This document shows positions 35,481 to 63,991 of a DNA stretch of 64,000 nucleotides, one piece after another. The DNA comes from Terriglobia bacterium. GTDB lineage: Bacteria; Acidobacteriota; Terriglobia; 20CM-2-55-15. The stretch lies in assembly GCA_963664115.2 (NCBI GenBank), contig CAXWPJ010000011.1:32001-96000 (forward strand). The letters run 5' to 3'. The stretch's first letter is position 1. Each line of letters starts with the position of its first letter. A program made the translations under genes and the position numbers. Below the pieces are notes generated by a model. It had not been told where the DNA came from. It did no database searches and saw only the letters and a list, made by a program, of their open reading frames with translations.

Positions 35481-36329
35481 TCAATCCTCCGGATACTTGT
35501 CTCCCGGATAGGCGAATATGACTTCCCTTCTGGCCACGTCAGGATCGCAGTCATGCCAGCGCGGGTTCGGCCCCCCCGCCTCGCGGCTCAAGTGGAACGA
35601 GTACTTGAACGGCCGCGTCAGGAACGTGGGGTCTTCAAGAGTAACGATCAGCCTCAAGTGGTCGTCATCGATGATTTGATAGCGCTCGGTGAGCTTCTTC
35701 CGCACCGAAGACGCCATATGGAGATGATCGTCCATGCCGTCCGGATCGAACGTGAAGTTGGTCGTTTCAACAACCAGGTCGTCCCCGTCAAACCGGCCGA
35801 TCGAGTGGCCCTGCTGAAACAAGAATTTTGACGGCGGGTGTCCGCGTCCATCCATCCATATGTCCCGGGTAATCTGGTCCGCCGGGTCCGGATGTTGAAA
35901 CACGAGCTTGTCCAAATATCCCCATATATGCACCCCACTGTCGAACACTGTCGGAATGCTCACATTCGCGCACTCGGCCAGCACCGGCGACGCCCGGTGG
36001 TCCGCAAACACCAGCCACGCCTCTCCGCGTTTGTTCAACGGGAGTTGGTCGACCGGCATCGCGCAGTTCAACAGTTTTTCGCCATAGTCTCCCAGACGGC
36101 CGCCACAGTTGCCGCGGTCCTCACTGGCGGGACCTTCGGCACCCCTTCCGATCCCCGTACCCCAGCTCCCGATAAACGAAAAGGACTTGTCGAACTGCTC
36201 ATCGCTCTGGGCGGCCAAAACCGGAGGCCCAAACAGAATCATCAACGTTAGGAAGCCGCCGACCGCAATCTGGTTCCATCCTCGGTTCTGGCCAGTCACT
36301 CTAGCCTTCCTGACACCTGTCATTGGCAT
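35481..36329 (-). CDS. Exported hypothetical protein, DUF6152-partner family
   Basis: IWMDGRGH, GHSIGRFDGDDLVVETT, TERY, EDP and C-terminal Cys, shared with five other ORFs in the window. Confidence 0.82.
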   Translation of the reverse strand: MPMTGVRKARVTGQNRGWNQIAVGGFLTLMILFGPPVLAAQSDEQFDKSFSFIGSWGTGIGRGAEGPASEDRGNCGGRLGDYGEKLLNCAMPVDQLPLNKRGEAWLVFADHRASPVLAECANVSIPTVFDSGVHIWGYLDKLVFQHPDPADQITRDIWMDGRGHPPSKFLFQQGHSIGRFDGDDLVVETTNFTFDPDGMDDHLHMASSVRKKLTERYQIIDDDHLRLIVTLEDPTFLTRPFKYSFHLSREAGGPNPRWHDCDPDVARREVIFAYPGDKYPED

Positions 36330-36618
36330 CCTCCTAAAGCACGCGGATTCATTCGCAGCTCAGAACGCTCGTCCTCAGATCCGAGGATCAAGCATCTAGA
36401 GAACCCCTCCGGCCTGTTCCACGCTCGTCCTACAGGCCGGAGGCCAAAGCGTCGACAGAGCCCGTCTCAAATGGCGTACTTCAAACCGAACCTGCATGAT
36501 TCGCGGGTCATTGACCGACGTGATCCTCCAAAAACGGCTGTTCTCACCGGGTTTCGGCATTGTTGCGTTGGCCGCCGGCTGTCCGTCGTCGCGCAGCCAT
36601 ACCTGAACCAGTCCTTTT

Positions 36619-37716
36619 CTACTCTCGGAAGTCCCGTTGAGCTTGATAGCACTCGACCAGGACGGTGAAAAAACGGTCGACAGCGTCTCGGTTGACAAAC
36701 GAATGGGGCTCTCCCTCGTATTCAAAGAACAAGCCGCCATATGTGTCTTCTACATCTCGCGTTGCAGTCGGATTCATGATTCTCCACACGCGCGCCTTCT
36801 CCTGAATGTTCCCGTGGCTGTATGTCGGCGTGAGGATCGTGTCGGCTCCGGCCTCGGCGGCAATTTCCTTGAACCGCCGTGTCGAATCCACCCAGGTGTT
36901 CATCATAGTCACGCCGTCCGGAAAATACCGGACTCCCTGCCGGCCGATCGAGATGTCCGCGCCGCCCCAGAAGGCGGCCACGTGCCGGTCCTCGTCCGAA
37001 GTCACACTCCGCCTGTTCCACAGCGGTTCGATAATCATCGAAAGCGTGCCCGGTGTCTGCCCCGGAGTCACGTAGAACGTGATCGTGACGTCCCCCAGCG
37101 TCAGTGCCTGGCCGTCGGTGACCACCATGTCCCTCGTCGGCTTGAGCTCCTGTGGATTGTTGTCGCCGGCCACGACCTCCCAGGCCGCCTCCGACATCAC
37201 AACACGCGCCGACGGGTAAGCTCTCTGGAGAACGCTCGCGCCGGAATAGCGGTCGATGAGAGCATCCGAGACGATGATGTACCTGAGGTTCTCGGGTTCG
37301 ACACCGAACCTGAGCAGGTTCAGGACCAAGTCTTCGCTGTTGTAGTCGAAGCCCGGGTCGATAACGACGACCCCTTCTGAGGTGTTGACGGCATACACCG
37401 GGTAATCCTGTGCGCCTATAGAATAGAGATTGTCGAAAAGCCTCACCGGCCGTAGGTACCATTCCGACCACGACATCTCCACACTCCGGTCCTGCTGCCG
37501 GATCTGATCCGGCAGTGTGGGTTCGGCGCACATCTGGTCGAACAATCCGTCGAAAACGTGAAACGGCTGTAAGGGATTTTCGACGGCCGGCCGCACCGCG
37601 GCCCTGGCCGCCGGCACATGCACTTCGACCTCACCGGCCTGTGCGTTGGCGTCCGTGACGATCCCGCTCACACACAGGAATACGCCACACACTGCAGGCG
37701 CCAGATAGCCTCTCAT
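36619..37716 (-). CDS. Exported subclass-B3-like MBL-fold protein with degenerate metal site
   Basis: PVRLFDNLY.IG, T.EG.VVID, LTLGDVTI, TPGQTPGT; the HxHxDH position reads DALIDR. Confidence 0.8.
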   Translation of the reverse strand: MRGYLAPAVCGVFLCVSGIVTDANAQAGEVEVHVPAARAAVRPAVENPLQPFHVFDGLFDQMCAEPTLPDQIRQQDRSVEMSWSEWYLRPVRLFDNLYSIGAQDYPVYAVNTSEGVVVIDPGFDYNSEDLVLNLLRFGVEPENLRYIIVSDALIDRYSGASVLQRAYPSARVVMSEAAWEVVAGDNNPQELKPTRDMVVTDGQALTLGDVTITFYVTPGQTPGTLSMIIEPLWNRRSVTSDEDRHVAAFWGGADISIGRQGVRYFPDGVTMMNTWVDSTRRFKEIAAEAGADTILTPTYSHGNIQEKARVWRIMNPTATRDVEDTYGGLFFEYEGEPHSFVNRDAVDRFFTVLVECYQAQRDFRE

Positions 37717-38458
37717 GGCACTCTCCTTATCGTTCGAAATAGATTCTTGAAGAACGTCCAAACGATCATAATCGGAGGGTGTCGGCCGGGTCAAAGATAG
37801 TATCTGCGCTAATCAATTCGTTCCTTTGCCAACGGGTGCGTTGTCGGCGCGGATTCTCGGCCCAGGGTCTGCCAAGCCTGAGGCGTCTCGTTCCTGGTCG
37901 CGTGTGGAACGAGCCCGGCACGATACTTCTCGACCGGGTCCCGAAGTCGCAAAAATGCCGTCTAGAATCCTTCCTGAACCACGATTGGGCCGGTGATCGA
38001 TCTATGGTAAGGAGATTTTCTCCGGGTTGGTGCCACTGGATCCACAACCGCAAGAGCGGCACGCGGCGTGAAAACGTTGGGAGCGTCTCGAGAACACCGC
38101 TCGGCTTTCCCTCCATTTCCACAACGCCGTCGGCGATACGTTTAGCCCTCAGCCGGCAGGTGTGCACGGTGGTGGCGCCGAGCAGAAGCGTCTAAGCGAT
38201 GGTGAACGCCTGTGCCAGACTGTGTTTCCCTGCGTTCCGCAAGGTCAACGATACCGTATACCATCATATGGAATAGCGACTTAGCGACTGGCTTGATATC
38301 AGCCGCCTCCCAGCATTCAACGAAAAATCGCCATCTGGCCCCAACCCATTAACAAACTGCTTGACGGTAAAAGTGCTTGAAGCTAAACGAATTGACCCGT
38401 ATATTAGGGCCAATTCGCCCATTTGAAAACCGAGCAAGTGCAGGAGGGACATTTAAAC

Positions 38459-40355
38459 ATGAAACCCGCGCAATTCTCCGTAATGATTCTGGCTGTAATG
38501 GTCATGGTGATTTTGTCTTGGCCGTTTGCCGCCACTGCACAGCAAGACGCAAGCCCGCCGCAAGTGGATCAGGACCGCATTGAAGAGGCGCACGCCCCGC
38601 TGTTTTCCGGTCAGGATGAGGCCCTGGATGCGGGCCGGTTGACGGAATCTGTGGCTTCGTCGTTGCCGGACACAGGGGCTTCCTATGAGCCCATAGCTCT
38701 AAATAATTTCGTCGACGAATTCGTCTTCGGAAAGATGGAACGCGACAATGTTCCACATGCGCCTCTGGCGGGTGATGCAAAGTTTCTGCGAAGGGCGTAC
38801 CTGGATCTGACAGGCCTTTTGCCGACGATAGATGAGGCCCGTTCGTTCCTAGCAAACACCGATCCGAATAAGCGCGACGCGCTGATCGACACGCTGATCG
38901 ACACAGAGGCATTCGCGGATCAGTGGGCATATCATTACGGGGAACTGTTCAGAACGGACGACGCCCGTTTTCACCTTTGGACAAAGCAATGGCTCAGGGT
39001 CGACCGGCCCTATAACGAAGTCTTTTATGACATCGTTACGCCGACCACCAAGTATGCGGGGGGGGCTCCCGGCGGCGATGTACTTTGATCCCACCACCTA
39101 CACGAACACTCGCTGCATCTTTATTACCGATAGCGACCATTAAAAAGCTTTTAACCGTCTGGACTGGATGGATGAGGTCACCTCGGATCTTTCGCGCGTT
39201 TTTCTTGGCCTTACGGTGGACTGCAGTTCCTGCCATAACGGCGCGGGTCACACCGACACCGTGAATCTTTGGTTGACGGACAAGAGGAGATCCGACTTCC
39301 ACCAGCAGTCGGCCATCTTTGGAAATCTGCGGCTCACGGCATCCGGTGGCTTCCAGAATGGTGCCCCCACGTTCGACGACGGGGCGCCGGGATATAACAC
39401 CGCGGACGACGGAGCTTACTATACCCCGTCAGAGATGCGTTTCCCGCGTGATGGCAGAACCTACGAACCGGCCTTCCTGTTGACTGGAGAAACGCCAGCG
39501 CCCGGTGAGAATCCCCGTAAGTTTTTCGGAAGGGTAGCGCCCCAGCATATCCAATTCGCGCGCGCGGCGGTCAACATCATTTGGAAGAAGTTGATGGCGG
39601 TGGGTCTGGTCGAGCCCTACGATGGTTTTGATTTGCTGCGTCTGGATCCGAACAATCCGCCACCGGAGCCGTGGACCATTCAGCCGACCAATCCTGAATT
39701 GCTGGAGGCGCTGGCCGAAGATTTCCGCACGAACAACTTCAGCGTGAAACGCATGATCCGGACCATTATGAAATCGAACGCCTATCAACTCGATACGAGC
39801 TTTGAAGGGGAATGGGTGGATGCCTATATCCCATATCATGCGCGCAAGTTCGCTCGGATTTTGACGGGCCCGGAGGCGGTCGATATCGTGGCACAGGCCA
39901 CCGATACGTCGGCCACGTTCGAGATGGAGCAGTATGGAGAGTCCCAGAGGTACGTCAAAGAGCTGACCAATCCCGCAAACACGAGGACCAACCGGAATCC
40001 GGAAAATAGGGAAGTCTTTGCGTTCATGCAGGCGTATTACCAGACCGAGCGCGCCCTGCCACCGGCCGATAAGAGTCGGGCCAGTCCGGTGCAGGCAATG
40101 ATGATGATGGGTTCGCCCGTGATCACCAGCCGGGTGGACGCCCGAGGGGAGACGCGAGTCGCCAGCCTGGTGAACTCCAACAAAACAGATGATGAAATCA
40201 TCGAGGAACTGGTCCTGTCGAGCATGTCACGCTTGCCCACAGTCGATGAGCTGGTATTGGGGAAGCGTTTTATTGCAGAGAAAGGCAGGCGCGATGGTGT
40301 TGAGGCCATCCAGTGGGTGCTGCTGAATAGTACAGAGTTCTTACTGAATCACTAA
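38459..40355 (+). pseudogene. DUF1549/DUF1553 (PSCyt/PSD1) protein with a frameshift and an in-frame stop
   Basis: FLRRAYLDLTG, CSSCH, AVN.IW..LM..GLVEP, PTNPELL, W.LLNS.EF..NH; G8 run at 39058-39065 and TAA at 39141. Confidence 0.85.
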
Positions 40356-40388
40356 GGCATTTAACGTTTGCAGCGAGGAGAACAAGGA

Positions 40389-41846
40389 ATGCGAAAACGA
40401 ATAGGGGATTTGACCCGCCGCGATTTGCTGAAATTGTTCGGTGTGGGCGTGGGCGCGTCGCTTGCTGGCCAAGTCGCGTCGCCGCGCAAGGTTCGAGCCG
40501 CACAAGGTTCGAGGGTGACGCCACGAGGGTCGGCGCGCAATTGTATTGTGATTCAAAATGGAGGCGCCCCGAGTCCGTGGGAGACCTTCGACTTCAAGGA
40601 AACGAAGTGGACGGCGGATGATCTGGATATTCAGCGGGTAAATTCGGAAGTCGTTCTGTCGAAAACCCTCTTCCCCCGTGCCCATGAAACCTGGGCGCCA
40701 CGAGCCTCCTTTGTTCGTTCAATGAGGGGAGGCGCGTTGGTTCACTTCCCGGCCCAGTACCACCAACAGGCCGGTCGCGCACTGAACACCGCAATCGTCC
40801 GGGAGGTTCCGGCATTGGGCAGCGTCGTCGCGAGTGAGCTCGATTCCGAGCGTCGAGAGTCCGACACGTTTCCCACGTTTGTCAGTCTCGACTTGTGGAA
40901 CATTCGGTGTGCGCCATTGGGATCTGGAATGTTGCATCCTCGCTTTGCGGGACTGGACCTCAACACAACCAGCGTATTCGATGCCTTCGGTGGCGATGGT
41001 CCGGAGAGCAATTCGAAGTTGGCGGAACGCTGGGAGGCGCTGAACCGATGGTCAGAGGTTTCCAACCCAGGGGGCAACGACCGGTTTGGCCCGAAGAACG
41101 AAGAATACCAGGCCTCCTATGACTACGGCATCGAGGTCTTACTGGATCCACGGTTTAAGACAGCACTCAACCTGACCGATGAGGAGAAGACGCGGTACGG
41201 CGTGGATGTCGATGGCGGGAACACGAAGCTGGGCCTGGGAATGCTCCTGGCGCGGAATCTGCTGGCCGCCGATGCGGGTACGCGAATGCTGTGGGTGGCC
41301 AACGGCTACAATGGCAGAAACGGGGTATTTGATAACCATTCGGGCCTGTACAAGAGGGGCGTCCCGGCATCAGCCCAGGCACAACCGATATATACAAGCG
41401 TCCCCAGGTTTGATCTAGCGTTCTCGGCCCTGGTTGAAGACCTTCTGGCCATGCCCGGCCATGAACCTGGAAAGACGATGTTAGATGAAACCCTGATAGT
41501 CGTCACCCAGGAATTCGGACGCACACCAGAAATGAACTCTGCCGGCGGCCGTGACCATTTCGGCCCCCTGTTTACGAATGTGTTTCTGGGAGGCGGCGTC
41601 CAGGAGGGACGGGTGATCGGCAAGACGGACGGAACCGGCGAGAATTTGATCGAAACGGGTTGGCAACATCGAGAACAACCAATGATGGATCACGTCACGT
41701 CGACAATCTATTCGGCTTTGGGCATCGATTACAGCAAGGTATTCGAAGACACGCCATCGGGACGCGTCTTCGAACTCCAGCAAACCGCCCCGCTCGGGGG
41801 TCCGGCGTTTATTCCTCGGACGGAGATCCACGAGTTGTTTGTATGA
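40389..41846 (+). CDS. DUF1501 domain protein, Tat-exported
   Basis: TRRDLLK, GGAPS.WETFD.K, FDNH, EFGRTP, GGRDH. Confidence 0.9.
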   Translation: MRKRIGDLTRRDLLKLFGVGVGASLAGQVASPRKVRAAQGSRVTPRGSARNCIVIQNGGAPSPWETFDFKETKWTADDLDIQRVNSEVVLSKTLFPRAHETWAPRASFVRSMRGGALVHFPAQYHQQAGRALNTAIVREVPALGSVVASELDSERRESDTFPTFVSLDLWNIRCAPLGSGMLHPRFAGLDLNTTSVFDAFGGDGPESNSKLAERWEALNRWSEVSNPGGNDRFGPKNEEYQASYDYGIEVLLDPRFKTALNLTDEEKTRYGVDVDGGNTKLGLGMLLARNLLAADAGTRMLWVANGYNGRNGVFDNHSGLYKRGVPASAQAQPIYTSVPRFDLAFSALVEDLLAMPGHEPGKTMLDETLIVVTQEFGRTPEMNSAGGRDHFGPLFTNVFLGGGVQEGRVIGKTDGTGENLIETGWQHREQPMMDHVTSTIYSALGIDYSKVFEDTPSGRVFELQQTAPLGGPAFIPRTEIHELFV

Positions 41847-42643
41847 ACAGACTGATAGTGTTCGCGATCCTGTGTTCCGTTTGCGCCGCGTTGCCAATCG
41901 CGGCGCAAACGGGGGCACCGGAAGGCATGGTGCAGATTCCCGCCGGCGAGTTCTGGATGGGCCGTGCCCACGCCATCGATAATGATGCGGACGATAACTT
42001 GCCGCGGGTCTGGCGGGATGACAGGCCCGCCAACCTGGTTTATTTGGACGCCTTCTACATTGATCAATACGAGGTAGGAAACGCGGACTATGCCCGGTTT
42101 CTGGAAGCGACGGGCGCTCAGGCGCCGTGGCACTGGCCCGAAGGCGAAATCGCTGAGGGTCAAGAACGGCAAGCTGTTTCCAACGTCAACTGGTTCGAGG
42201 CGGACGCCTACTGCCAGGCGGCAGGCAAACGTCTCCCCACCGAAGCGGAATGGGAGAAGGGGGTACGAGGCGGGCGAGATCGGGAAATTTACGCATGGGA
42301 CGGTGGCGTCGTTGCGGACGAGTATCGCCCAACTTTCGAAGCCGGCGGGCCGGCAGCTGTTTCCCTTAACAAGGCCGCGGCCGTCGGATCATATCCACCC
42401 AACGGTTATGGTCTCTACGACATGATCGGTAACGTGATCGAATGGACCAATGACTGGTATGACCGCGGTTACTATGCTTTCATGCCGAAAACCAATCCAC
42501 AGGGACCCGACGACGGTCTATACAAAAGCACTCGTGGCGGTGGTTGGGCGGAAGGCCGGGGCTCAAAGTTGGCGAATTATTACCGCAACTTCAGTGATCC
42601 TGATCTCCGTGGCTCCACGATAGGCTTCCGCTGCGCACAGTAA
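41843..42643 (+). CDS. FGE/SUMF1-sulfatase domain protein
   Basis: IPAGEF.MG, RLPTEAEWEK, PNGYGLYDM.GNV.EW, RGG.W, GFRC; ATGA overlap with the upstream gene. Confidence 0.92.
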   Translation: MNRLIVFAILCSVCAALPIAAQTGAPEGMVQIPAGEFWMGRAHAIDNDADDNLPRVWRDDRPANLVYLDAFYIDQYEVGNADYARFLEATGAQAPWHWPEGEIAEGQERQAVSNVNWFEADAYCQAAGKRLPTEAEWEKGVRGGRDREIYAWDGGVVADEYRPTFEAGGPAAVSLNKAAAVGSYPPNGYGLYDMIGNVIEWTNDWYDRGYYAFMPKTNPQGPDDGLYKSTRGGGWAEGRGSKLANYYRNFSDPDLRGSTIGFRCAQ

Positions 42644-42677
42644 GAAGAACAACCAAAAAACCTCAGGACGTAGCGTT

Positions 42678-43262
42678 ATGCGTTGGGTGATTGTTTCAAT
42701 ATTGATCACACTCCTTTCCGTATCTGGGTCTCAGGCTCAGACTTCAACAGAACCTCCACCTGCCGAGCCTGTGCTCGACCCCACCCTGCTGGGCCAGGAA
42801 TGGGTGGATCGACTGAATGCGCTCGGCGACTGGCACATAACTATGGATGGAAGGGAAGAAGGAATCGACCAAGTGGTCGATGCTTTTATGGAGCCCTTAG
42901 ATCCCGATGTGCTTGTGGAGGTACCGCCCCACGATGAAAAACAGATTGGACCCGTTATGCTTATCGGCACCCGGCAGGTGCGGCAATGGGCCGATAAGTT
43001 TGCGAGATCTAATGTCGAGATCAGCTACTATCTGAAACGTCAGACCGAGAAGGAAGTCGAAGGAGAACGAATGGTCTATTCCAAGGTGTTGCCTTGGGGC
43101 GGACTGGGTATTTCGTTCCCTATCATCGCAGACTATGCTGTTCGTGAGGATCGTCGAAGGTTTATGGAAGTGGGAGCCGTGTTCCTGCAGTATGGAGAGG
43201 ATGGAAAGATCCAGCGCTTCCGTCTTATGCAAGCCGAAAAAGAGGAGGTTCTTGACGATTAG
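42678..43262 (+). CDS. Exported hypothetical protein (possibly NTF2/SnoaL-like)
   Basis: Signal peptide; last gene of the operon; ends ...EDGKIQRFR. Confidence 0.65.
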   Translation: MRWVIVSILITLLSVSGSQAQTSTEPPPAEPVLDPTLLGQEWVDRLNALGDWHITMDGREEGIDQVVDAFMEPLDPDVLVEVPPHDEKQIGPVMLIGTRQVRQWADKFARSNVEISYYLKRQTEKEVEGERMVYSKVLPWGGLGISFPIIADYAVREDRRRFMEVGAVFLQYGEDGKIQRFRLMQAEKEEVLDD

Positions 43263-43349
43263 TTTTCAGTTAGGGATTGATAAGGAAACCGTAGACGGAT
43301 TGGCGGCATCCTCAGCAATCGCAGCCGCCCATGTCCGCCCCGCGGGAGA

Positions 43350-44246
43350 TCACTCGGGCATCAACTCGTCGATCATCCCGTCGATCGAGTTCGTGCTCGC
43401 TCGGCCCCCCTCCTGCCAGCCGTACTCGTCGCTTTCCAGCACTCCCACGATCTCTTCTTTAGTCTTGTTGTCACGGAGCATCTGCGTCACTCGCCATCGT
43501 ATCGACGCGATCTGCGCTCGCCACCGCGTGAAGCCCTCGCGGTCGGTCACGGGCCCGTGTCCTGGCACCACGGTGTCGAAATTCAGCCCCAGGGCAGAGT
43601 CACCCACCTTCTCCCGACCCGCGAAGCTCCCTCCAGTATTGTAGTCAATATAGAATGCGAAGGTGGGCGACCCGGTCGTGTTTTCACCCCGCCCGTTCCC
43701 CGTGTTAAAGCAATCGCCACTGGAAAGCACCCTCACGGCCGGAAAGTAAACGAAGCTGTCACCATCGGTGTGGCATGGCCCGAAATGGTAAACGATCGCC
43801 TCTTTTCCGCCCAGGTTGATCGTCATCTGATCGGCATAGGTCATTTCAGGCAGGCCCGGTTGATTGTTACGGACCATTGCCGCCGCTGCGTTTTCATGAG
43901 CGACGAGTACGGTCGACGCGGGCATACTTGCGTTTCCGCCGCTGTGGTCCCCATGCGGGTGTGTATTGATGACGTATTTCACCGGCTGGTCCGTAAAGGA
44001 TCGCAGTGCCGCCTGAAGCTGGTCGTAAGTGCGATCGAACTTATCGTCGACCAGAATCAGGCCTTCATCGGTCACGTACACGGAAACGTTGCTGCCCTCA
44101 CCCTGGATGACGTAGAAATCGTCCGCGATCTCTAAGACCGGAAGTGGACCCGAATTCTGCGGATTCTCGGCCGCGGCGTCCTGGTCTTGAGCGAAAAAAG
44201 CCGTACAAAGGACCAGGGCGGTCAGCACCACCACGCGAGTTCTCAT
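43350..44246 (-). CDS. Exported MBL-fold metallo-hydrolase (cyclase-like)
   Basis: INTHPHGDHSGGN, HTDGD, SGD, VPGHG. Confidence 0.9.
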   Translation of the reverse strand: MRTRVVVLTALVLCTAFFAQDQDAAAENPQNSGPLPVLEIADDFYVIQGEGSNVSVYVTDEGLILVDDKFDRTYDQLQAALRSFTDQPVKYVINTHPHGDHSGGNASMPASTVLVAHENAAAAMVRNNQPGLPEMTYADQMTINLGGKEAIVYHFGPCHTDGDSFVYFPAVRVLSSGDCFNTGNGRGENTTGSPTFAFYIDYNTGGSFAGREKVGDSALGLNFDTVVPGHGPVTDREGFTRWRAQIASIRWRVTQMLRDNKTKEEIVGVLESDEYGWQEGGRASTNSIDGMIDELMPE

Positions 44247-44575
44247 TGAAGCACCTCCAGAAATGGTGTGTCATCGTTGTCTCAGCCGAAGCGCAGAGAC
44301 CCACCCCACCACAACAATTATGTATGGGGGCGATGGTGGGGAGCATTGCACGAATGCCTGTTGGATTGCACCACTCGATTCGATTCCGTCCAGGGATCCG
44401 TCTGCGTCTCTCTTTCGTTTGGCCCATGGAAGAGCAAAAAGTGTCTTCAACCCCTTTTACGATAAATTGAATAACTACAGGTCACCGCAAAATTTCTTGA
44501 CAGCACAGAACGCCGCCCGTAGGCTTCACCCGAGTACAGTAGTTTCCAACGCCAGCAAGAATTATGGAGGAACTG

Positions 44576-44995
44576 ATGTCGCGCACATTACGGTTCGCGG
44601 TGGTTCTAGCGTTTGCGGTGTTCTGTTTCGCCGTCACCCCTGCTCTGGCCCACCATTATCACGGGCTGAGCTTCGACCCCACGAAGAAGATCACGCTGTC
44701 GGGGACGGTGACGCGGGTGGAGTTCAGGAATCCGCACATCCGCTTTGATATCAATGTCGTGGATGAGAATGGACAGGTCGCAAGCTGGTCGGTCCAAGGC
44801 TCTCCTCTGAACGTCGCATTTCGACGCGGATGGCGGGCGGATGACATGCAGCCGGGCGACCGCGTCACGGTCACGGATGCGAATATGTCGAGGGACGGGT
44901 CGGCGCGCATCGACGGCGGCACAGTGACTTTTGCCGACGGTCGAGAAGTATTGAGTGGAACCGCGACCGATTACGCAGGGTCGGGAAACGATTAG
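44576..44995 (+). CDS. DUF6152-like exported protein
   Basis: ALA|HHYH...FD, NPH, WSVQG, PGDRVTV. Confidence 0.85.
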   Translation: MSRTLRFAVVLAFAVFCFAVTPALAHHYHGLSFDPTKKITLSGTVTRVEFRNPHIRFDINVVDENGQVASWSVQGSPLNVAFRRGWRADDMQPGDRVTVTDANMSRDGSARIDGGTVTFADGREVLSGTATDYAGSGND

Positions 44996-45113
44996 GATAA
45001 TTTCGCAGGTTCCGTTGGGCTGAAGGCGGCGGGTTGCAGGTGGGCGTTTCTCCTCGATTCCGACGCATAATCGGCAGATCCGCTTGCAGCACGCCTTGAG
45101 GAGAGATCCAATT

Positions 45114-46070
45114 ATGGGACAGCACTCCCCCCTGAATCTGATATCTGCAGTCGGGGTCATACTTGGCGTTTTGATCGCGGCGCCAGTGACGACCGCGGCT
45201 CAAGTCAGACCCTGGTCATCGTTCCAGGCTGACGCCGGCCTTGCCTCGACTACCCATATTGACTGGAATCAAACTCCCGACTACCTCTATCACATGGAGG
45301 AGTGGGATGGAGTCTTCCCGAAGGAAACGGGTCCTCGAGACTTTCGGGGCATTTGGAGAGGCCAGGGCGGGCGGCCCTGGGACGTCAGCGATCTGCGCCG
45401 AGGAAGAGAGATCGGCATCTTTGACGGCGGGGGCGGTGGTCTCCAGACGGACATTACCGCCAGCCTGCTGCCGGGTGAGGAAATCGTGCTCACCGAATAC
45501 GGCGCTGAAAGGTACAGAAACATGGATATATCCGAGGGGCCGGCCATGCGTTGCCTGCCCTATGGTCCGGTCAGAGTCATGCTTCAGGCGGACCCGAAGG
45601 AGTATATCCAAAACGATAAACAGTTGTTGATGCTCACCGAGCTGCAGGCCGCGTTTCGACAGATCCATCTGGATGGCCGTGATCATCCCGCGGAAGGCTT
45701 TGATCTTCGAGCCTGGTGGGGACATTCGGTTGGCCACTGGGAGGAAAACACACTGGTGATCGAGACCATCGGTGTCAATGACCGGGTGTGGATAGACTTC
45801 GGCGGCTTGGAGAACAGCAACCAGTTGCACCTGGTCGAACGGCTCCGCAAGCTCGATGACAACACGCTGCTCTGGGCGGTAACGGTCACGGATCCGGTCT
45901 ATTTTCAGAAGCCGTTCACGGCCGAGCGATTTCTCTATCGGGTGCATCCCGACGACGCGCCCCGGCTGCTGCCGGGAATCTGTCACGACGGAGAAACGGA
46001 TTTTGCGCATCGGCAACCTACTCCGCCGATACGCCACCGCGTTCCCCCCACGATGCCCGACTCCCGCTGA
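45114..46070 (+). CDS. Exported hypothetical protein, DUF6152-partner family
   Basis: CLPYGP.R, I.LDGR.H, GHSVG.WE..TLVIET, DP, terminal CHD. Confidence 0.85.
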   Translation: MGQHSPLNLISAVGVILGVLIAAPVTTAAQVRPWSSFQADAGLASTTHIDWNQTPDYLYHMEEWDGVFPKETGPRDFRGIWRGQGGRPWDVSDLRRGREIGIFDGGGGGLQTDITASLLPGEEIVLTEYGAERYRNMDISEGPAMRCLPYGPVRVMLQADPKEYIQNDKQLLMLTELQAAFRQIHLDGRDHPAEGFDLRAWWGHSVGHWEENTLVIETIGVNDRVWIDFGGLENSNQLHLVERLRKLDDNTLLWAVTVTDPVYFQKPFTAERFLYRVHPDDAPRLLPGICHDGETDFAHRQPTPPIRHRVPPTMPDSR

Positions 46071-46284
46071 GTCCGCTGGCCTGTTTGGCGCGAATCGGGC
46101 GCGAATCGAAGGAAGCGCCAAAGGGCTTCGTTCGTAAAAGGTCATCCTCTCCCGGTTCCAACTTTACAGAGACCGAACGCGGGCTGGCGAGGGGCAGGAC
46201 GCACGACCCGACTTGGCAGAAGCCTTGATCTGAACTCGGCCTTGGGGATCGAGCCGAGTGGCTGGCAACAGAGGCCGGACCGAA

Positions 46285-46770: not shown

Positions 46771-46824
46771 GGCGGATCTTCCTTAAGTATCACCTGTGAC
46801 TCGGCACACAGTCTACTGAGGGTG

Positions 46825-47307: not shown

Positions 47308-47500
47308 ATTTACCCGTTCAGTTGCCGGCTCGCTTTGCTAAGCTTCCCGGTCTCATGCCTTAGGGCCGAGCCTATTGCGACTGAACATGTAGTCTATACA
47401 CCACCGGGATCTGGCCTGTTGACGGACAGCCGAGGGAGTTTCTCCTCGGCGACCGATGGAACCTGTACCGAGCCCCGGGCCGGGGGCCGCTGCCTCAACA

Positions 47501-57046: not shown

Positions 57047-57481
57047 GTGAGAAAAATCGTACCCTTCATAATCGCCCTTGTTTTTTGGGTCGAACCTGCA
57101 TTGACTCAGACCTCTCCGTCAATTGTAGGCGCTTGGGAACGGACACGGCGTGAGCCACCCGCTTTGCCTGCTTTCATAATGTTCAGCGCGGACGGGTATT
57201 TCTCCATGACGATACTACCGGCGGGTCGTCCCGAAGGGAGCATACGGGAGTTGACGCGGGAAGAATTGCTGGTTCGATACGAGCGTCTCGTGGCCCGGCG
57301 GGGACCCTATAGCATCGACGGCAACAGGCTGACTCGCCACGATGAGGCGCATCACAACCCGAATCTGGTCGGCAGAACGAACCTCAACTTGTTTCGGATT
57401 GAAGGCGGTATGCTCATTTTCTCTTCGGAAGATGGCATCGACACCGAATGGTACCGGCGTATGGAACCGTACGCACCTTAG
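57047..57481 (+). CDS. Exported lipocalin-like domain protein
   Basis: Signal peptide, IVGAW, FSADG, G.YSIDG. Confidence 0.65.
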   Translation: MRKIVPFIIALVFWVEPALTQTSPSIVGAWERTRREPPALPAFIMFSADGYFSMTILPAGRPEGSIRELTREELLVRYERLVARRGPYSIDGNRLTRHDEAHHNPNLVGRTNLNLFRIEGGMLIFSSEDGIDTEWYRRMEPYAP

Positions 57482-57630: not shown

Positions 57631-58473
57631 ATGACTATGCACCTGTTAAGCCCCGTGTTTTTGGCATGGATCGTTCTCCATGCGTTCGCTCCAGTTGTTT
57701 CAGGGGCAGTCCTCCAGTCGGGCGCGGAAGTGCCTGCGGTTGGCGCCTGGTGGTATACCGGTGACGCGCCGCCCGCCGGATCGACTCCCGACCTGACCGG
57801 CGTTTTCTCCGGAGGCTCGAGCGGGGACTTGTCCCAGAGTACGCTGGAAGGCGAAGAGATGATCCTGACACAGTACGGCTACGACAGGTACCGGAGCGTC
57901 GATCATGCGAAGGATCCCAACACATTCTGCGTGCAGCCAGGTCCTGCCCGTATGATCATGATGCTCCATCCCGCCATGATCGTTCAGCGTTCCGATGCCG
58001 TGGTCATCCTTACCGAATCCCAGCGGACTTTCCGGATCATCTATACGGATGGCCGCCCTCATCCACCCGAAATCGACGACTATCCCGAGTTTATGGGAAG
58101 CTCGATCGGCCATTGGGAAGGAGAAACGCTTGTCGTGGAAACTGTGGCGATCAATGATCGCACTTGGCTGGACACTTCCGGGCATGAACACAGTGATCAG
58201 CTCAGCATGGTCGAGCGATTTCGCTTACGCGATCCGAATACAATAGAACACATCGTCACCTACACCGACCCGGTGTTTTTCGTGAGACCTTTCACAACGA
58301 TTCGGACCTTCACCCGTGACATCGGTGACCGCATCATGGATCATTCGTGTGTGGACAACGAACAGGACATCGAACACCTGCGGCCACTGATAGGCGGTAC
58401 AGGGCTCGATGTGGCGGTGTATCAGGACGAAGACGGTAATATTATCCGTCCGGAACCCCGCCCCGAACCCTGA
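57631..58473 (+). CDS. Exported hypothetical protein, DUF6152-partner family
   Basis: PDLTG, DP..FC...GP.R, IYTDGRPH, GSSIG.WEGETLVVET, DP, terminal Cys. Confidence 0.87.
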   Translation: MTMHLLSPVFLAWIVLHAFAPVVSGAVLQSGAEVPAVGAWWYTGDAPPAGSTPDLTGVFSGGSSGDLSQSTLEGEEMILTQYGYDRYRSVDHAKDPNTFCVQPGPARMIMMLHPAMIVQRSDAVVILTESQRTFRIIYTDGRPHPPEIDDYPEFMGSSIGHWEGETLVVETVAINDRTWLDTSGHEHSDQLSMVERFRLRDPNTIEHIVTYTDPVFFVRPFTTIRTFTRDIGDRIMDHSCVDNEQDIEHLRPLIGGTGLDVAVYQDEDGNIIRPEPRPEP

Positions 58474-58678: not shown

Positions 58679-59839
58679 ATGCAATCTTCAGGTCATACAC
58701 ACAACGGCTACGCCGGTCATTTGCAAGAAAAGCGGACCCACCTGCGGCATCCTTCACGGCGGGAATTTGTTGCCGGACTCGCGGGCGTGGCAGCAGGTGC
58801 TATCTTTCTTCCGCGTCCTTTTGCCGCACAGACGTCGCCACAGAACCGGATCGATGTCCATTGTCACTTTGTGCCGGCCGCCTATCTTGAGTTCCTGAAC
58901 GCCAATTACCCCGACATGCCTCGATCCTATTCCCCGCCAGACTGGGAGGTGTCCGAACACATTGAAGAGATGGACCGGGGCGGTGTCCGAACGAGCATTC
59001 TTTCGCTTCCGAGACCCGGCATATGGTATGGCGAGTTGGAGGGAATCCGAACGATTGCACGGGAGTGCAACGACGCCAACGCAAGGCTAGTCGCGGACTA
59101 TCCAGGCCGTTTTGGCATGTTTGCGACCTTACCGCTGACCGATATTGAGGGCAGCCTTCGTGAAACGGAATACGCGCTAGACACGCTGAAGGCTGACGGT
59201 ATCGCCATGAAGACCCCTTACGAGAACCTATGGCATGGGGACCCATTGTTCGCCCCGCTTTACGAAGAACTCAACCGGCGGGGAACCGTGGTTTACACCC
59301 ACCCCCAAGATGCTGCCTGTTGTGCGGGCACCGTGCCGGGAGTCGGCTCGCTCGTACCAAATGTTGGTAATACGACGGTCGAGTACGGTACGAATACGAC
59401 ACGAACGATCGCGAGTCTTTTATACAGCGGCACGGCTGCGCGTTACCCGAACATTCGTTGGATATTCTCGCATGCGGGAGGAACTGCACCGTTTTTGATC
59501 CATCGGTTCATCGGCGCCGGGCTCGCGCCGTATCTCAGAGACGGCGGCGTACTGGCCCCGGGCGCTTCTGAGCCCAGGGTGAGTCCGGAGATGCCGAGAG
59601 GGGCGCTGTATGAGCTCCAAAAGTTTTATTACGACACTGCGAACACCTATAACCCTGTGGCCATGGGGGCGCTCCGGAAAGTGGTGCCCGTTTCGCAGAT
59701 CGTATTCGGGTCCGATTTTCCGTACGGCTCCCCTTCAGTAATCGCTAATGGTCTTGCGGTATCCGAGGTATTCAACGCTCAGGAACTTCGGGCGGTCGAC
59801 CGCGACAACCTGGCCAGGATTCTGCCGCAGGTTCAATAG
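58679..59839 (+). CDS. Tat-exported Amidohydro_2 protein; paralogue of 55663-56754
   Basis: SRREFV; IDVHCH, YTHP...CC, HAGG, YYDT, FGSDFPY. Confidence 0.9.
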   Translation: MQSSGHTHNGYAGHLQEKRTHLRHPSRREFVAGLAGVAAGAIFLPRPFAAQTSPQNRIDVHCHFVPAAYLEFLNANYPDMPRSYSPPDWEVSEHIEEMDRGGVRTSILSLPRPGIWYGELEGIRTIARECNDANARLVADYPGRFGMFATLPLTDIEGSLRETEYALDTLKADGIAMKTPYENLWHGDPLFAPLYEELNRRGTVVYTHPQDAACCAGTVPGVGSLVPNVGNTTVEYGTNTTRTIASLLYSGTAARYPNIRWIFSHAGGTAPFLIHRFIGAGLAPYLRDGGVLAPGASEPRVSPEMPRGALYELQKFYYDTANTYNPVAMGALRKVVPVSQIVFGSDFPYGSPSVIANGLAVSEVFNAQELRAVDRDNLARILPQVQ

Positions 59840-60126: not shown

Positions 60127-60969
60127 CTAAAGTCCAGCTGCGGGATCCCGAACGCGACTGTTGAAATTGTCCACCTCGTCGACCGGCGCACAGTCTTCTT
60201 CAAAAACGCCATACCATCCCTGAAGGTCCGTCATCCTCGCGTACCAGGCGACTACTTCTTCTCTCGGGACGAGCCTGTAACTTTTCTGTTCGGCCACCCA
60301 TGGCCGCGTGTAGGTCAGTGGATCAGTGATCGTCATCTCAAGTTCGATAGTATCGTGGTCGACACGCGTGTAGCGCTCTACGACTCTTGTGGCTTCGCTG
60401 AGAGGGTAGCCGTTCTGGTCCAACCACGCTCTATCGTCGAAACCTGCCGACTCCACAACAAGAGTGTTGTCCTCCCATCTCCCGGCCGAGTAACCGTACC
60501 ACCTCCGAAGATCGGGGTTGAAATTCTCGGGAAGTTCTCGTCCGTCCGTCCAGATCTCGCGAAACACCCGATGCCACGAAAACATCTGCACCAGCAAATC
60601 CGGGGTTTGAATGAACTGAGTGGGCCGGGGATACAGCAAGGCGCGCGTCAGGCCCGCTGGATTGCACTCCCCGGTGGGATCGTTACCCGTTGCAGGAGGA
60701 ACCTGGCGGGGGCCATACCCCGGCCGGTACGAGTCGAAGCGTGCCTGGCCTTCGGGGGTCATCGGGGGAGTCGTATCATCCCCGGGGCGCCGACTGATGC
60801 CCCGGCTCCCGCCGTTGCGCTCCCAGATTCCAGAAAAGTCGCGCGGATCAAACGGCGCGTCCGGGTTGGGCGCGGCTCTAGCAACAGAGCGATCCTGGGC
60901 GAGGGTGGCCGACGCGAACACCAACATCACGGCCAAGGTCAAAATCGTTGTGATGGAGCGACTTAACAT
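60127..60969 (-). CDS. Exported hypothetical protein, DUF6152-partner family
   Basis: DFSGIW, DP...CNP.G, IWTDGR, GYS.GRWE..TLVVES, DP, terminal Cys. Confidence 0.87.
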   Translation of the reverse strand: MLSRSITTILTLAVMLVFASATLAQDRSVARAAPNPDAPFDPRDFSGIWERNGGSRGISRRPGDDTTPPMTPEGQARFDSYRPGYGPRQVPPATGNDPTGECNPAGLTRALLYPRPTQFIQTPDLLVQMFSWHRVFREIWTDGRELPENFNPDLRRWYGYSAGRWEDNTLVVESAGFDDRAWLDQNGYPLSEATRVVERYTRVDHDTIELEMTITDPLTYTRPWVAEQKSYRLVPREEVVAWYARMTDLQGWYGVFEEDCAPVDEVDNFNSRVRDPAAGL

Positions 60970-61067
60970 GGGTCGTTAACCTCCAGATGCGTTGTCCAGA
61001 ATCTGAAATTGAGCGGATACCGTCCGCATGGGCGGAGTTCCCCACGAAGTGTCAGTTTTCCCTGCCG

Positions 61068-61475
61068 TCATCTTTCTCTGCCGTCGTCCCGCTCCATGGT
61101 CCGGCCATCCGGCAGTTGGACCTCCGCCATGACTCCAGTCGGCGTGCCAGCCCTGGAGGGCGATAGGATAACCGTGACCTCGTCTCCCGGCCTGATGGAA
61201 TTCCTGCTCCAGCCGGCTTTGGACAAATGGAAGGGGGCGCTGATCTCACCGCTCCAGTGGACGACGTTTCCGTCCTCGTCCGTCACATCCCAGAAAAGTT
61301 GAGCGTGAGGATTGGTCAGCCGCCATTGGGTCACGATTCCAGTGACGCTGACGCGTTTTTCCATGTCGTAGGAAATGCTCGTTCCGTGGTGCGCGAAGAC
61401 AGGCACCGAAACCACAAGTGAACCCGTACTGACAGCCAAAAGAACCGCAAGCAAAGTTATCGTTCTGTGCTTCAT
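61068..61475 (-). CDS. DUF6152-like exported protein
   Basis: VFA|HHG...YD, NPH, WSGE, PGDEVTV. Confidence 0.85.
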   Translation of the reverse strand: MKHRTITLLAVLLAVSTGSLVVSVPVFAHHGTSISYDMEKRVSVTGIVTQWRLTNPHAQLFWDVTDEDGNVVHWSGEISAPFHLSKAGWSRNSIRPGDEVTVILSPSRAGTPTGVMAEVQLPDGRTMERDDGRER

Positions 61476-61658: not shown

Positions 61659-62477
61659 TTACTTCACTTCACAAGGAGTCGGGTTCCACTTGGATCCGTC
61701 GGGCTCCTTCTTGAAGTTCGAACTTCGAATCAAGGGTCCGACGCGGTCCGAGCCCGGCAAGCCCCCTCCCGGTTGGGATCCCAGGTATTGTGGGTCGTCG
61801 ACGATCGTGGACACGATCAGCCATGTGTCACCACCCGGGATGTCCGCACGGTGAAAATACTCCGTCACGACGGCGTTCTCACTGTAGGGCACACCGTTTC
61901 GCAGTAAGTATCCGGCGTGCATGCCTGTCGTCACAACCTTCAGATTGCCGCCTCGGGGAATACCGTTCTGGCCTCCCGCGACTTCCCACTGCGCCGACGA
62001 ATACCCCTGCCACGTCGGCTCGGCACCGACAGGCGGTGAGCCATCAAAATGGAACAAGCGTGTCTGCATCCCCGCATCGGTGTCGATTCGCAGTGTGTTT
62101 TCGTCTTCCCAGGTCACATGCAAACGCGTTGGAATCCGCATGATGTTGCCTGCGCCATAAGCCTTGCACGCGTTCCCTTCGGCTACGTCCCGGGCTGGAT
62201 CCCACTGATCGGCGACGCGGCGGCCTTCCTCGTTGAGCGGTATGGCCGGGAAACTGCCCTTTTCGGCGGTGAGCATTCGCCATCGCCAGTCTTCGGTGAT
62301 CAGCGACACCCAGTATCCCGTCGGGTCGATGACAGCTTGCTCTTGCCCGGGCCGTGGGTCTGGTGGGGCCGGGCCGCCTCTCTGGGCAACCATGTACGTG
62401 GGGCTTCCAAGCAACACTATTGCCAAGGCGGCCAGGAACATAAACGACGTATGCCGGGGCAAAATTCCGTAATTCAT
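61659..62477 (-). CDS. Exported hypothetical protein, divergent DUF6152-partner family
   Basis: DPTGYWVS..TEDW..RM, CKAYGA, QGYS.A.W, NGVPYS, DP.YL, terminal PTPC. Confidence 0.8.
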   Translation of the reverse strand: MNYGILPRHTSFMFLAALAIVLLGSPTYMVAQRGGPAPPDPRPGQEQAVIDPTGYWVSLITEDWRWRMLTAEKGSFPAIPLNEEGRRVADQWDPARDVAEGNACKAYGAGNIMRIPTRLHVTWEDENTLRIDTDAGMQTRLFHFDGSPPVGAEPTWQGYSSAQWEVAGGQNGIPRGGNLKVVTTGMHAGYLLRNGVPYSENAVVTEYFHRADIPGGDTWLIVSTIVDDPQYLGSQPGGGLPGSDRVGPLIRSSNFKKEPDGSKWNPTPCEVK

Positions 62478-62575
62478 TTTGGTCCTATCAATCGATCCAT
62501 CAATTAAGGCAGGCCGACACCGGGTTGTCCCACGGTTCTCGCTCTTCCTACACTGCCCGTCGCGCGGGAAATTCG

Positions 62576-62989
62576 TCAGTCGACCACTTCTTCGGGGAGG
62601 GTGCCCCAGGACCACCCATCCGATGGCCGGATGACACTGAGCAGGCGTCCCCGATGGCTACCTGGGCTACGCGCTGGATTGAACACTACTTGCACTGCAT
62701 CACCCACCTGCAGTCCGTCGCCTTCACCCCGGCGCATTCTGGATGCGGCCGCGCCCTCGATGGACCATCGCTGCACGTCTCCATTCGTGTCTGGAGCTTG
62801 CACGTGAATAAAGGAGTGGGGATTGCGGAGCAAGAACTGCACGACTCTCCCTTCAATCTCTTGGGTACCGTCCAGGTCGTAGGTTGCTCCAAAAGAATGG
62901 TGAGCGTATGCGGGCGTAACAGACGCCATCCAAATTCCTGCGGCAACCATTCCGGCGACGGCGAGCCAGACAAGCGATTTACCTTTCAT
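62576..62989 (-). CDS. DUF6152-like exported protein
   Basis: AYA|HHSF.ATYD, NPHS, WSIEG, GD.V.V. Confidence 0.87.
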   Translation of the reverse strand: MKGKSLVWLAVAGMVAAGIWMASVTPAYAHHSFGATYDLDGTQEIEGRVVQFLLRNPHSFIHVQAPDTNGDVQRWSIEGAAASRMRRGEGDGLQVGDAVQVVFNPARSPGSHRGRLLSVIRPSDGWSWGTLPEEVVD

Positions 62990-63058
62990 GCGTACTGACC
63001 TCCTCGAGAAACTTCGACAGAACTTCGATGCTGCAGCGCCACGAAGAGCGCCTGACGA

Positions 63059-63991
63059 CTAGCCTTCGATGAGGCTGCGATACACCGACTCGACGAACCG
63101 GTCGGTGGTGCCCGGTTCCCGCCCGTAGAGCGGGTCAAAATCGAGAGTGAGTCCGGCCTCTTTCACCTGCTCCAACGTCATGCCTTTTTCGATCGCGTTA
63201 CGGATGCGATCACGAATCATCGTGACCATGTCGCGGTAGTACGCGACTTCCGTGAGGTCGCTGATGCGTCCGTGCCCGGGAACCACCATCGTTCCACCTT
63301 GCGACCGGAATTCCGGGAAAATGAGATCGATAATACTGTTGATCCCGTCAAGCAGCCCCTGAATGCTGCCTCCCTGCTCAAGGTCGATGACGGGGTATCG
63401 GTCAACTGCAATGATATCCCCCGTGCTGATCACGTCGGAGTATCGGAAATAAACGATGCTATCGCCGTCAGAATGCGCCGCCGGCATGTGGATGACCTGA
63501 ACGCCTTCTCCATTGAAAAACCGATTCACCCGATGTTGTCCCTCAAGGTACGTATGCGTCGGGACTGCACTCGGTGCCGGACGCTCCGGGGCATCGATCA
63601 TCCGCAGCACGACATTGTCGTGGGCGATGACCTGTTCGCCACCGCCGAGCGGACGGAAAAAGTCACTTTCCACGATCGCGCTGTTCCCTCCCATGTGATC
63701 TTCATCCAGGTGGGTATTGATGATGTAGCGAATGGGCCGGGTCGGGCCGGAGGGATCGAGCTGGCGGGAAAGCTCCCGAACCCTGGCGAGCACTCTGTCC
63801 GACATTTCCGCCACGCCCGTGTCCACCATCAAAACGCCGTCTTTGCCAACGGATAGAGTGATATTCCCGCCGGCGCCGACCAATATGTACACATTCCCCT
63901 GGACGGGCCAAACATAGAATTGGTCGTCGTCGCTCTGAGGTTCCAGGGCATAAGCGGGGTTCCAGAAACAGAGGACCAGAGGCACAGCCAT
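63059..63991 (-). CDS. Exported MBL-fold hydrolase (start may lie at or beyond the window end)
   Basis: INTHLDEDHMGGN, AHSDGD, TGD, VPGHGR. Confidence 0.88.
   Translation of the reverse strand: MAVPLVLCFWNPAYALEPQSDDDQFYVWPVQGNVYILVGAGGNITLSVGKDGVLMVDTGVAEMSDRVLARVRELSRQLDPSGPTRPIRYIINTHLDEDHMGGNSAIVESDFFRPLGGGEQVIAHDNVVLRMIDAPERPAPSAVPTHTYLEGQHRVNRFFNGEGVQVIHMPAAHSDGDSIVYFRYSDVISTGDIIAVDRYPVIDLEQGGSIQGLLDGINSIIDLIFPEFRSQGGTMVVPGHGRISDLTEVAYYRDMVTMIRDRIRNAIEKGMTLEQVKEAGLTLDFDPLYGREPGTTDRFVESVYRSLIEG

Follow-up and report, generated by a model that had tools for sequence, protein, structure and literature searches.

An expanded family of putatively exported DUF6152 proteins and predicted barrel-type partners in a Terriglobia genome, possibly forming split periplasmic metalloenzymes

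The stretch of DNA analysed here (the window: 64,000 nucleotides, positions 32001-96000 of contig C11) comes from the genome of a Terriglobia bacterium (4.89 Mb in 12 contigs, 97% complete), and it carries several copies of a system of two putatively exported proteins: a DUF6152 protein, which we call the cap, and a member of a family without a Pfam name, which we call the barrel partner (residues of both are given in mature numbering). All four small DUF6152 genes of the window score well above the curated cut-off of Pfam PF19649 (62.5-89.1 bits against 27), and each encodes a hydrophobic stretch, then small residue-any residue-Ala, then His-His; an NPH motif stands 25-26 residues after His-His, and W-x-x-E occurs in three of them, with W-x-x-Q in 44564. 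Six partner genes (35481, 45114, 47501, 57631, 60127 and 61659) co-align through an early Cys, a G-x-S-x-G/A-x-W/F motif, a DP and a late Cys, and none of the six finds a match in Pfam (E≤0.01) or NCBIfam (E≤0.1). On the minus strand, the order is metallo-β-lactamase (MBL)-fold gene 63059, DUF6152 62576, partner 61659, DUF6152 61068 and partner 60127. The first-pass annotation of this DNA had described three DUF6152-like genes with a fourth at 10321, six partners with these motifs, and alternation of the two at 60-63 kb, all of which our alignments and PF19649 matches bear out. The 10321 cap has no barrel gene within 13 kb and a different family (9598-10254) beside it, and the earlier list of components overlooked two DUF6644 membrane genes at 46285-47307 (Table 1). 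The 61068 gene likely starts at 61475, preceded by an AAGGAG site; among named loci, those nearest to the 60127 protein come from Acidobacteria gp5 and Terriglobia; and the segment 44576-48529 contains the set of genes that makes up the single-copy core module in other genomes.

Profiles built from the window proteins, and searched over the genome until converged, found 125 DUF6152 open reading frames (ORFs) and 145 partner ORFs, eight of which are fusions of both. The two domains span 169,752 bp, or 3.5% of the genome's DNA, and some 260 genes, roughly 5-6% of the coding-like ORFs, belong to the system; a few copies are truncated or split. A partner lies within 500 bp of 90 of the 117 stand-alone caps (when positions were randomised 1000 times, the mean was 6.7 and the highest count 17), 86 of these 90 pairs are co-oriented, with both gene orders occurring, and a cap adjoins 93 of the 137 stand-alone partners. 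The pairing first seen at 35481-63991 is therefore real and far beyond chance, and the expansion is not local: 13 of 920 overlapping genome stretches of 28.5 kb reach the density of nine cap/partner genes seen here, and we ruled out a local cluster in favour of an expansion spread over the whole genome. Caps share a median identity of 31% with their paralogues and partners one of 26%; in each of the two families, 10 pairs exceed 90%. Judged from their sequences, the paralogues of both are old. Adjoining caps and partners also diverge together (rho 0.44 against a permutation maximum of 0.16), a correlation equally expected from co-duplication alone; it was calculated on 73 non-redundant pairs, the 79 of 117 caps with unambiguous partners having been reduced by removal of near-duplicates, and ambiguous or gap-rich pairs dropped.

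Fusions tell the same story of two proteins that belong together, and they also have a fixed polarity. The DUF6152 domain comes first in all eight fusions of this genome and in 142/142 fusions among 150 representatives at 50% identity, where His-His is present in 138 of the 139 with that column filled; the His-His start is likewise kept in 118/118 closer fusions. Short-linker fusions are common: a natural single-chain example lies at C5:177644-178612, and 1,861 clusters (50% identity) match one fusion at E≤1e-10. That the cap always leads would fit a requirement for a free amine at His1.

Over 125 caps, His1 is conserved in 123, His2 in 124, His29 (of NPH) in 124, Trp46 in 111 and Glu49 in 98. 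A heuristic combining a hydrophobic core with the (-3,-1) rule predicts cleavage directly before His1 in 114 of 121 scored caps, which pass all three of its tests; the preceding residue is Ala in 109/121 and small in 119/121, and no twin-arginine (Tat) motif was found among the 121. The exposure of His1 by signal-peptide cleavage, as first proposed, thus agrees with this pattern-based prediction. According to PMC12537917, His at +1 is found in 2.6% of secreted proteins. Considering that His1, His2 and His29 are near-invariant despite a median identity of 31%, the cap probably bears an N-terminal metal site, in which His2 and His29 may be candidates for the second His of a histidine-brace site. 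A cap subtype at C12:345361-345894, C9:90605-91078 and L070:1451-1972 keeps His-His, has NxxH in place of NPH, and carries longer loops.

The AlphaFold2 model of the 61068 cap (predicted local distance difference test score, pLDDT, 91.3) matches oligonucleotide/oligosaccharide-binding (OB) folds of the SSB/PriB type with Z 8.8-9.1, a root-mean-square deviation (rmsd) of 2.7-2.9, 81 of 107 residues aligned and 14-21% identity. No sandwich protein stands among the 50 fold matches listed. CusF and CcmE are periplasmic OB proteins; proteins of their type are absent from the fold matches listed, and a viral library returned generic OB folds only. Lytic polysaccharide monooxygenases (LPMOs) and CopC, by comparison, are immunoglobulin-like sandwiches. 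The cap resembles the histidine-brace proteins (LPMOs, CopC, PmoF1, X325/Bim1 and YcnI) in being secreted with an N-terminal His and further conserved His residues, as described in PMC10952591, and differs from them in starting with His-His, in adding a third His and a Glu, in its modelled OB fold and in having a separate barrel partner. We suggest that the cap works like an N-terminal-His metal site, and stop short of calling it a histidine-brace protein. A second set of comparable proteins, DUF4198, DUF6702 and the anglerases Ang-1 and Ang-2, likewise expose a His by signal-peptide cleavage; according to PMC12537917, DUF6702 has a modelled three-His site (His1, His28 and His32), like the three His of the cap, and anglerases work with a membrane permease, as the cap may with its membrane partner, whereas these proteins have β-sandwich folds and anglerases are fused to HupE/UreJ-2. 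Neither the window genes nor the 102 members of set A3 gave a DUF4198, DUF6702 or anglerase match among the matches listed, and DUF6152 was not found in the accessible text and supplement of PMC12537917.

The partner has a different character. The model of the 60127 protein (pLDDT 95.1) matches barrels of the fatty-acid-binding protein (FABP)/calycin type with middling scores, led by the 19-kDa subunit of Oplophorus luciferase (5b0u; Z 8.4, rmsd 3.1, 118 aligned), with FABPs at Z 7.7-7.9 (2qo4: Z 7.9, rmsd 3.2, 111 aligned), the spirocyclase OlmO at Z 6.7, haem-binding nitrobindin at Z 6.0-6.4, and a Foldseek match to CRBP1 (E 2e-3, TM 0.56 by target). The likeness to the calycin superfamily (FABP/CRBP, nitrobindin, Oplophorus luciferase and OlmO) is a barrel over about 110-125 residues with an N-terminal G-x-W; the partner differs in its length of about 250 residues, large insertions, a probable disulfide, identities of 5-16% and its pairing with an OB-fold subunit. 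Cys78 and Cys236 are both present in 137 of 145 barrels, Arg113, Glu174 and Asp192 are also conserved, and the alignment of the family holds no conserved His. Among 306 cap-barrel pairs, Arg113/Glu174 are kept in 302, and the two cysteines are both kept in 289, both lost in 8, reduced to one in 1 and gapped in 7; since they are lost together, they most likely form a disulfide, and we rejected them as metal ligands on this pattern. A PDB sequence search with the barrel gave nothing below E 5.8; no PDB sequence relatives were found for cap, barrel or DUF6644, the sole E 7e-4 match being a repeat adhesin whose four weak stretches are summed, and look-alikes in the ESM Atlas fall in unnamed clusters only.

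As the cap has all the conserved His ligands and the barrel has the pocket, a single active or binding site would lie at their interface. Might the histidines instead bind haem or an organic ligand, or be structural, or might the two proteins share a pathway and form no stable complex? Nitrobindin is among the fold matches, and a barrel without a conserved His could take an axial ligand from the cap. We consider this very improbable, given that three near-invariant His, a mostly conserved Glu and the fixed N-terminus in fusions fit a non-haem metal site better, and that short linkers are common in those fusions. Mean-field direct coupling analysis on 306, 364 and 499 cap-barrel pairs (effective numbers 180, 231 and 363) recovered within-chain Cys-Cys, Arg-Glu and strand pairs, and its inter-chain maxima (z 5.2, 5.3 and 5.8) did not rise above shuffled pairings (5.6-7.6) in the three pair sets. 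The top pairs of the 499-pair set, not above shuffled ones either, connect two parts of the cap, the residue that follows His-His and the helix behind Glu49, with a single barrel region, which holds a mostly conserved Glu (303/339 when cap residue 3 is Ser); they are suggestive only, and we do not count them as evidence.

The barrel is not the only protein that a cap can accompany. The family of 9598-10254 has 13 copies in the genome, of which 12 have a cap or barrel gene no more than 600 bp away (1.0 expected), and it is also present in the sampled regions of genomes G034 and G035; a relationship to the barrel family was rejected (hhalign probability 5.6%), and its ESM Atlas look-alikes are unnamed. 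Caps beside this family have no barrels, and His4 is found in 10 of 12 of them against 5 of 101 others (Fisher p 3e-9). As this His-His-x-His subtype uses a different pocket protein, the cap appears modular. Many members carry two Cys in a variable insert, and by eye the family may resemble a PsbP/DcrB-like fold. Another exported family without a name (C6:64076-64789 and five relatives, with a conserved GaGhGT-GN motif) lies near the system as well: five of its six copies have a cap or barrel gene at a distance of up to 600 bp, where 0.5 is expected.

A third component sits in the membrane. DUF6644 genes, 21 in the genome, of which 18 have a cap or barrel gene no further than 2.5 kb away (3.9 expected), encode four-helix proteins in which an alignment of the 46285 protein with 25 relatives shows invariant His31, Arg48 and Lys99. 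Their likeness to known families is weak: DUF2214 for 13 of 26 members, CopD for one (E 0.0037) and UPF0093/HemJ for one (E 0.17). HemJ has a His/Lys haem site; a search through 61 genomes of the phylum gave no HemJ itself. Long forms that have some 320 residues and an additional HxxxNHxP motif at the N-terminus (C5:120131-121108, C2:349875-350852 and C12:259640-260602) are possibly fused pairs, or may have gained metal or haem sites. The "two-subunit" description given earlier is incomplete, single-copy genomes carrying partner-partner-DUF6152 together with a DUF6644 pair.

A comparison can be made with the copper importers CopC-CopD, YobA-YebZ and YcnI-YcnJ, in which a periplasmic His1 protein is likewise encoded with a membrane protein bearing a membrane His. 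Could the cap simply scavenge copper, nickel or cobalt for the DUF6644 pair or for client barrels, as a metal-uptake protein or chaperone? The cap and DUF6644 occur alone in Azospirillum and in genome G172, the weak DUF2214 and CopD matches point the same way, and the one invariant DUF6644 membrane His is like the functional His of CopD domains described in PMC13344008. CopC (PF04234) has no match in the genome, in the window genes or, among the 25 families listed, in the 102 members of set A3. Such a role nonetheless does not account for the 125 divergent caps, whose cognate barrels co-diverge with them and are often fused to them, in a genome with about six caps per DUF6644 gene, with barrel partners that have no counterpart in CopC-CopD import, and with no metal-homeostasis genes recurring among the neighbours. 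A chaperone would not need 125 divergent cognate forms, for which an enzyme or solute-capture family is the better fit; we regard the uptake or chaperone role as quite improbable.

Of 18 genomes of the same family, 12 contain between 45 and at least 112 DUF6152 matches (112 being the scoring limit) and six contain 0-3. The cap is missing from 11 of 12 genomes that represent other families of the class; in a sample of the phylum the cap occurs in 13 of 150 genomes, in eight of them as a single copy, and most relatives have none or one. Co-occurrence, suggested at the outset as a check on the pairing, is seen: cap and barrel presence agree in 30 of 31 genomes, as do cap and DUF6644, kin among these genomes not being independent. 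A cap lies within 4 kb at 70 of 79 partner loci, and genomes behind named loci, chosen for holding the partner, have 96 (Acidobacteria gp5), 112 (Vicinamibacterales) and at least 150 (Ca. Rariloculaceae, which we take to be Gammaproteobacteria) DUF6152 matches, two possibly overlapping genomes being left out. Of 56 caps sampled from the gammaproteobacterial genome G034, 27 have a counterpart at least 50% identical in the source genome; many cap subfamilies are, by sequence identity, shared across phyla, which suggests conserved and distinct jobs.

At the other extreme stand nine single-copy genomes. In seven of them a barrel-barrel-cap block faces a DUF6644 pair, in one the pair lies 7 kb off, and in one the contig ends; a tenth (G172) has a weak cap and a single DUF6644 only. 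A pyrroloquinoline quinone (PQQ)-type propeller gene lies upstream in four of the nine loci, directly so in L102, L105, L107 and L085 (three of these genes also encode an N-terminal cytochrome c domain), and a fifth locus has a cytochrome c gene in this place. Among cultured bacteria, cap and barrel occur on plasmids or chromids of Novosphingobium humi, N. sp. PP1Y, Sphingobium TomTYG65 and Croceibacterium atlanticum, three of the four with the DUF6644 pair. The PP1Y module neighbours two TonB receptors, a LigB-type dioxygenase, PurU, MetF, a GCV_T protein, an aldehyde dehydrogenase and a CoA ligase, a set known from lignin-monomer O-demethylation; that of TomTYG65 neighbours luciferase-like monooxygenases, TauD and sulfonate uptake genes, and both settings are catabolic. 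An apparent DUF6152-histidine-kinase read-through in genome G151 looks like a frameshift and was set aside.

Taken together, we propose, at a rough probability of 0.45, that these proteins are split periplasmic metalloenzymes in which the DUF6152 cap holds the metal, the partner provides the substrate pocket, and each of the 100-plus pairs is tuned to a different small organic molecule. The cap would dock on the mouth of the barrel and hold one transition-metal ion through the amine and imidazole of His1, with His2 and His29; Glu49 or a barrel glutamate would lie near the metal, and specificity would be set by the residues after His-His and the barrel loops. The DUF6644 pair (21 genes against 125 caps) would act as a shared inner-membrane partner, passing electrons or loading metal. 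Considering that a hydrolase has no obvious need for a co-inherited membrane partner, we slightly favour redox chemistry, with copper or iron, over hydrolysis. The first-pass annotation had spoken of diversified periplasmic metal-dependent enzymes or binders; adjacency, fusions, invariant His, co-divergence and a pocket fold support its exported two-component unit and a probable metal site, and its links to a TonB receptor and to hydrolases are taken up below. A fuller version, namely a modular redox metalloenzyme whose OB-fold cap holds copper or iron by His-His and a third His, docks on interchangeable pockets (the calycin barrel or the second fold) and exchanges electrons by way of a haem-bearing DUF6644 pair, more than 100 versions per genome letting uncultured Acidobacteriota and Gammaproteobacteria attack a wide range of dissolved organics, strikes us as unlikely in its entirety.

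Several observations weigh against an enzyme. Glu49 is replaced in 27 of 125 caps, a cap is missing from the 500 bp around 44 of the 137 stand-alone partners, and Azospirillum ramasamyi has cap and DUF6644 with no barrel within 6 kb. Most fold matches of the barrel are binding proteins, and a Z near 8 can mean a common arrangement. The support from single-copy genomes is narrowed by four of the nine belonging to one genus. Around the pairs of this genome, cytochrome c genes are not enriched (12/75 within 600 bp against 8.0 expected, p=0.10), so that we rejected this association, and PQQ genes are enriched marginally (5/11 within 2.5 kb against 2.1, p=0.04). In PMC12537917, the four recently characterised His1 families are described as metal binders or uptake proteins, DUF4198 and DUF6702 having weak or no oxidase/peroxidase activity.

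Some of these points would sit well with metal-assisted solute capture, whereby the metal would take hold of a carboxylate, catechol, thiol or phosphonate and the barrel would enclose the remainder, the ligand then being passed to a few shared membrane proteins (DUF6644 pairs, other transporters or sensors). Many periplasmic units per membrane unit (125 caps, 21 DUF6644 genes) would be expected of it, FABP-like barrels are mostly carriers, and TonB receptors flank several low-copy loci in other genomes. There is also a parallel in the 434 TTT solute-binding proteins of Rhodoplanes: these and the Bug proteins of Bordetella are, according to PMC5994714, lineage-restricted periplasmic families amounting to several per cent of genes, as here, whereas our system has unrelated folds, two-gene units and subfamilies that cross phyla rather than being mainly lineage-born. 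No periplasmic-binding-protein Pfam match was found for cap, barrel or DUF6644. Against capture, the four-helix DUF6644 resembles no known solute permease in Pfam or PDB, no transporter family stands out among the recurring neighbours, and a near-invariant three-His site would exceed the usual need of a binder. We find it a serious contender, if a rather unlikely one, and keep the split metalloenzyme as our tentative preference.

An earlier suggestion that substrates are imported by the TonB receptor finds no link in this genome, where receptors are not enriched (7/30 within 2.5 kb of a pair against 6.4 expected). The suggested association with hydrolases holds weakly, for MBL-fold genes (29/80 near pairs against 14.9 expected) and Amidohydro_2 (5/12 against 2.2, p=0.054), figures inflated because neighbour families were seeded from genes near pairs, which biases weak enrichments upward. 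Mild enrichments are also seen for NHL-repeat proteins (32 copies, 12 near pairs against 5.9 expected), which we take to resemble peptidyl-hydroxyglycine lyases, and for Ser/Thr kinases (21/50 against 9.1). The genome has three HupE/UreJ-2 genes as separate ORFs and two SCO matches; its context does not point to one metal. Exported MBL-fold proteins (36619, 43350 and 63059 in the window) form a second large expansion, with about 80 matches in the genome; two of the three in the window have altered or lost metal motifs, and all fall below the β-lactamase cut-offs.

Table 1. Features of the cap/partner system and its surroundings, in window coordinates.
Feature	Position	Strand	Basis and remarks
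Second partner family, exported, without Pfam/NCBIfam name	9598..10254	+	directly upstream of His-His-x-His DUF6152
DUF6152, His-His-Ser-His subtype	10321..10713	+	PF19649 82.5 bits; closest barrel gene 13.5 kb off
Barrel partner without adjoining DUF6152	35481..36329	-	family alignment and genome profile search
Exported MBL-fold protein, degenerate metal motif, accessory	36619..37794	-	PF00753; under all β-lactamase cut-offs
Exported MBL-fold hydrolase, HxHxDH intact, accessory	43350..44246	-	about 80 relatives in genome
DUF6152, His-His-Tyr-His, Gln replacing Glu49	44576..44995	+	PF19649 79.7 bits; start 44564 or 44576 possible
Barrel partner of 44576	45114..46070	+	family alignment and genome profile search
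DUF6644-like four-helix membrane protein	46285..46770	-	PF20349 22.3 bits, below cut-off 27; aligns with 25 relatives
DUF6644 four-helix membrane protein, second of pair	46825..47307	-	PF20349 31.3 bits
Barrel partner upstream of DUF6644 pair	47501..48529	-	likely start 48529
TonB-dependent receptor	49066..52559	+	PF25183; barrel ORF 49374-52559 split from signal-peptide start
Three amidohydrolase-superfamily genes, neighbours, not core	52785-54140, 54250-55581, 55663-56754	-, -, +	PF01979, PF04909
Exported lipocalin-like protein (Lipocalin_5), neighbour	57047..57481	+	Pfam match
Barrel partner without adjoining DUF6152	57631..58473	+	family alignment and genome profile search
Amidohydro_2 protein, neighbour	58679..59839	+	Pfam match
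Barrel partner of 61068	60127..60969	-	modelled FABP/calycin-like barrel; Cys78-Cys236, Arg113, Glu174, Asp192
DUF6152, modelled OB fold	61068..61475	-	PF19649 89.1 bits; His1, His2, Asn27, His29, Trp46, Glu49
Divergent barrel partner of 62576	61659..62477	-	likely start 62477
DUF6152, His-His-Ser-Phe	62576..62989	-	PF19649 62.5 bits
Exported MBL-fold protein, altered motif HxDxDH	63059..63991	-	another barrel gene just upstream, beyond window

The window also contains repeats. An 18-kb segment (33148..51160), starting from an IS256-like element, is repeated at C6:1-17847 up to the contig end with 99.75-99.95% identity, copying the genes of two reported pairs and the DUF6644 pair; it is either a recent duplication or the assembly of two strain variants. 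In the TonB gene 49066-52559, 167 bp are duplicated in tandem (copies at 49125 and 49292), and the signal peptide is thereby out of frame with the barrel; the C6 copy, free of this duplication, breaks off at about codon 376, and the duplication is absent from one RNA-library contig too, leaving an allele or an assembly error as explanations. At 38423-43262 lie a split DUF1549/DUF1553 gene (38423-39088 and 39168-40355), a DUF1501 gene, a gene with an FGE-sulfatase domain and an exported protein without a name, and a paralogue of this block, 81% identical, lies at C4:8918-13678. The region 20400-35100 holds other cargo and four copies of the element that we take to be IS256-like, one splitting an integrase (32565-33173 and 34520-35086). 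Genome-wide there are 69 matches to these insertion sequence (IS) elements and about 86 to presumed IS1380-like ones; as general drivers of the expansion both were rejected (IS1380-like 14/86 near pairs against 16.6 expected, IS256-like 11/69 against 11.4).

Two studies supplied four RNA-library runs whose contigs cover 61068, 44576 (runs X3 and X5), 62576/63059 and the TonB gene, and contigs of three runs bridge 61068 and 60127; 46092-46755 (DUF6644) and 53396-54723 are uncovered. A control stretch at 26320-30170 is nearly uncovered, a weak control that lies among IS elements and is perhaps absent from those strains. For the expression check suggested earlier, such contigs give no level, strand or single-transcript information and may include DNA carry-over.

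None of 8.4 million searchable papers, a coverage that excludes subscription journals and supplementary gene tables, names DUF6152 or DUF6644, and we found no described counterpart to the arrangement of OB cap and calycin barrel. What is newly found here is the second partner family at 10321, the co-inherited DUF6644 pair, and the expansions of 96-150+ copies in other lineages. The system is directly testable, as natural single-chain fusions exist and cultured sphingomonads carry the low-copy module. If it is an enzyme, it would extend N-terminal-histidine metal chemistry to a new fold, with thousands of natural variants; whatever its chemistry, it likely defines the lifestyle of these uncultured bacteria.

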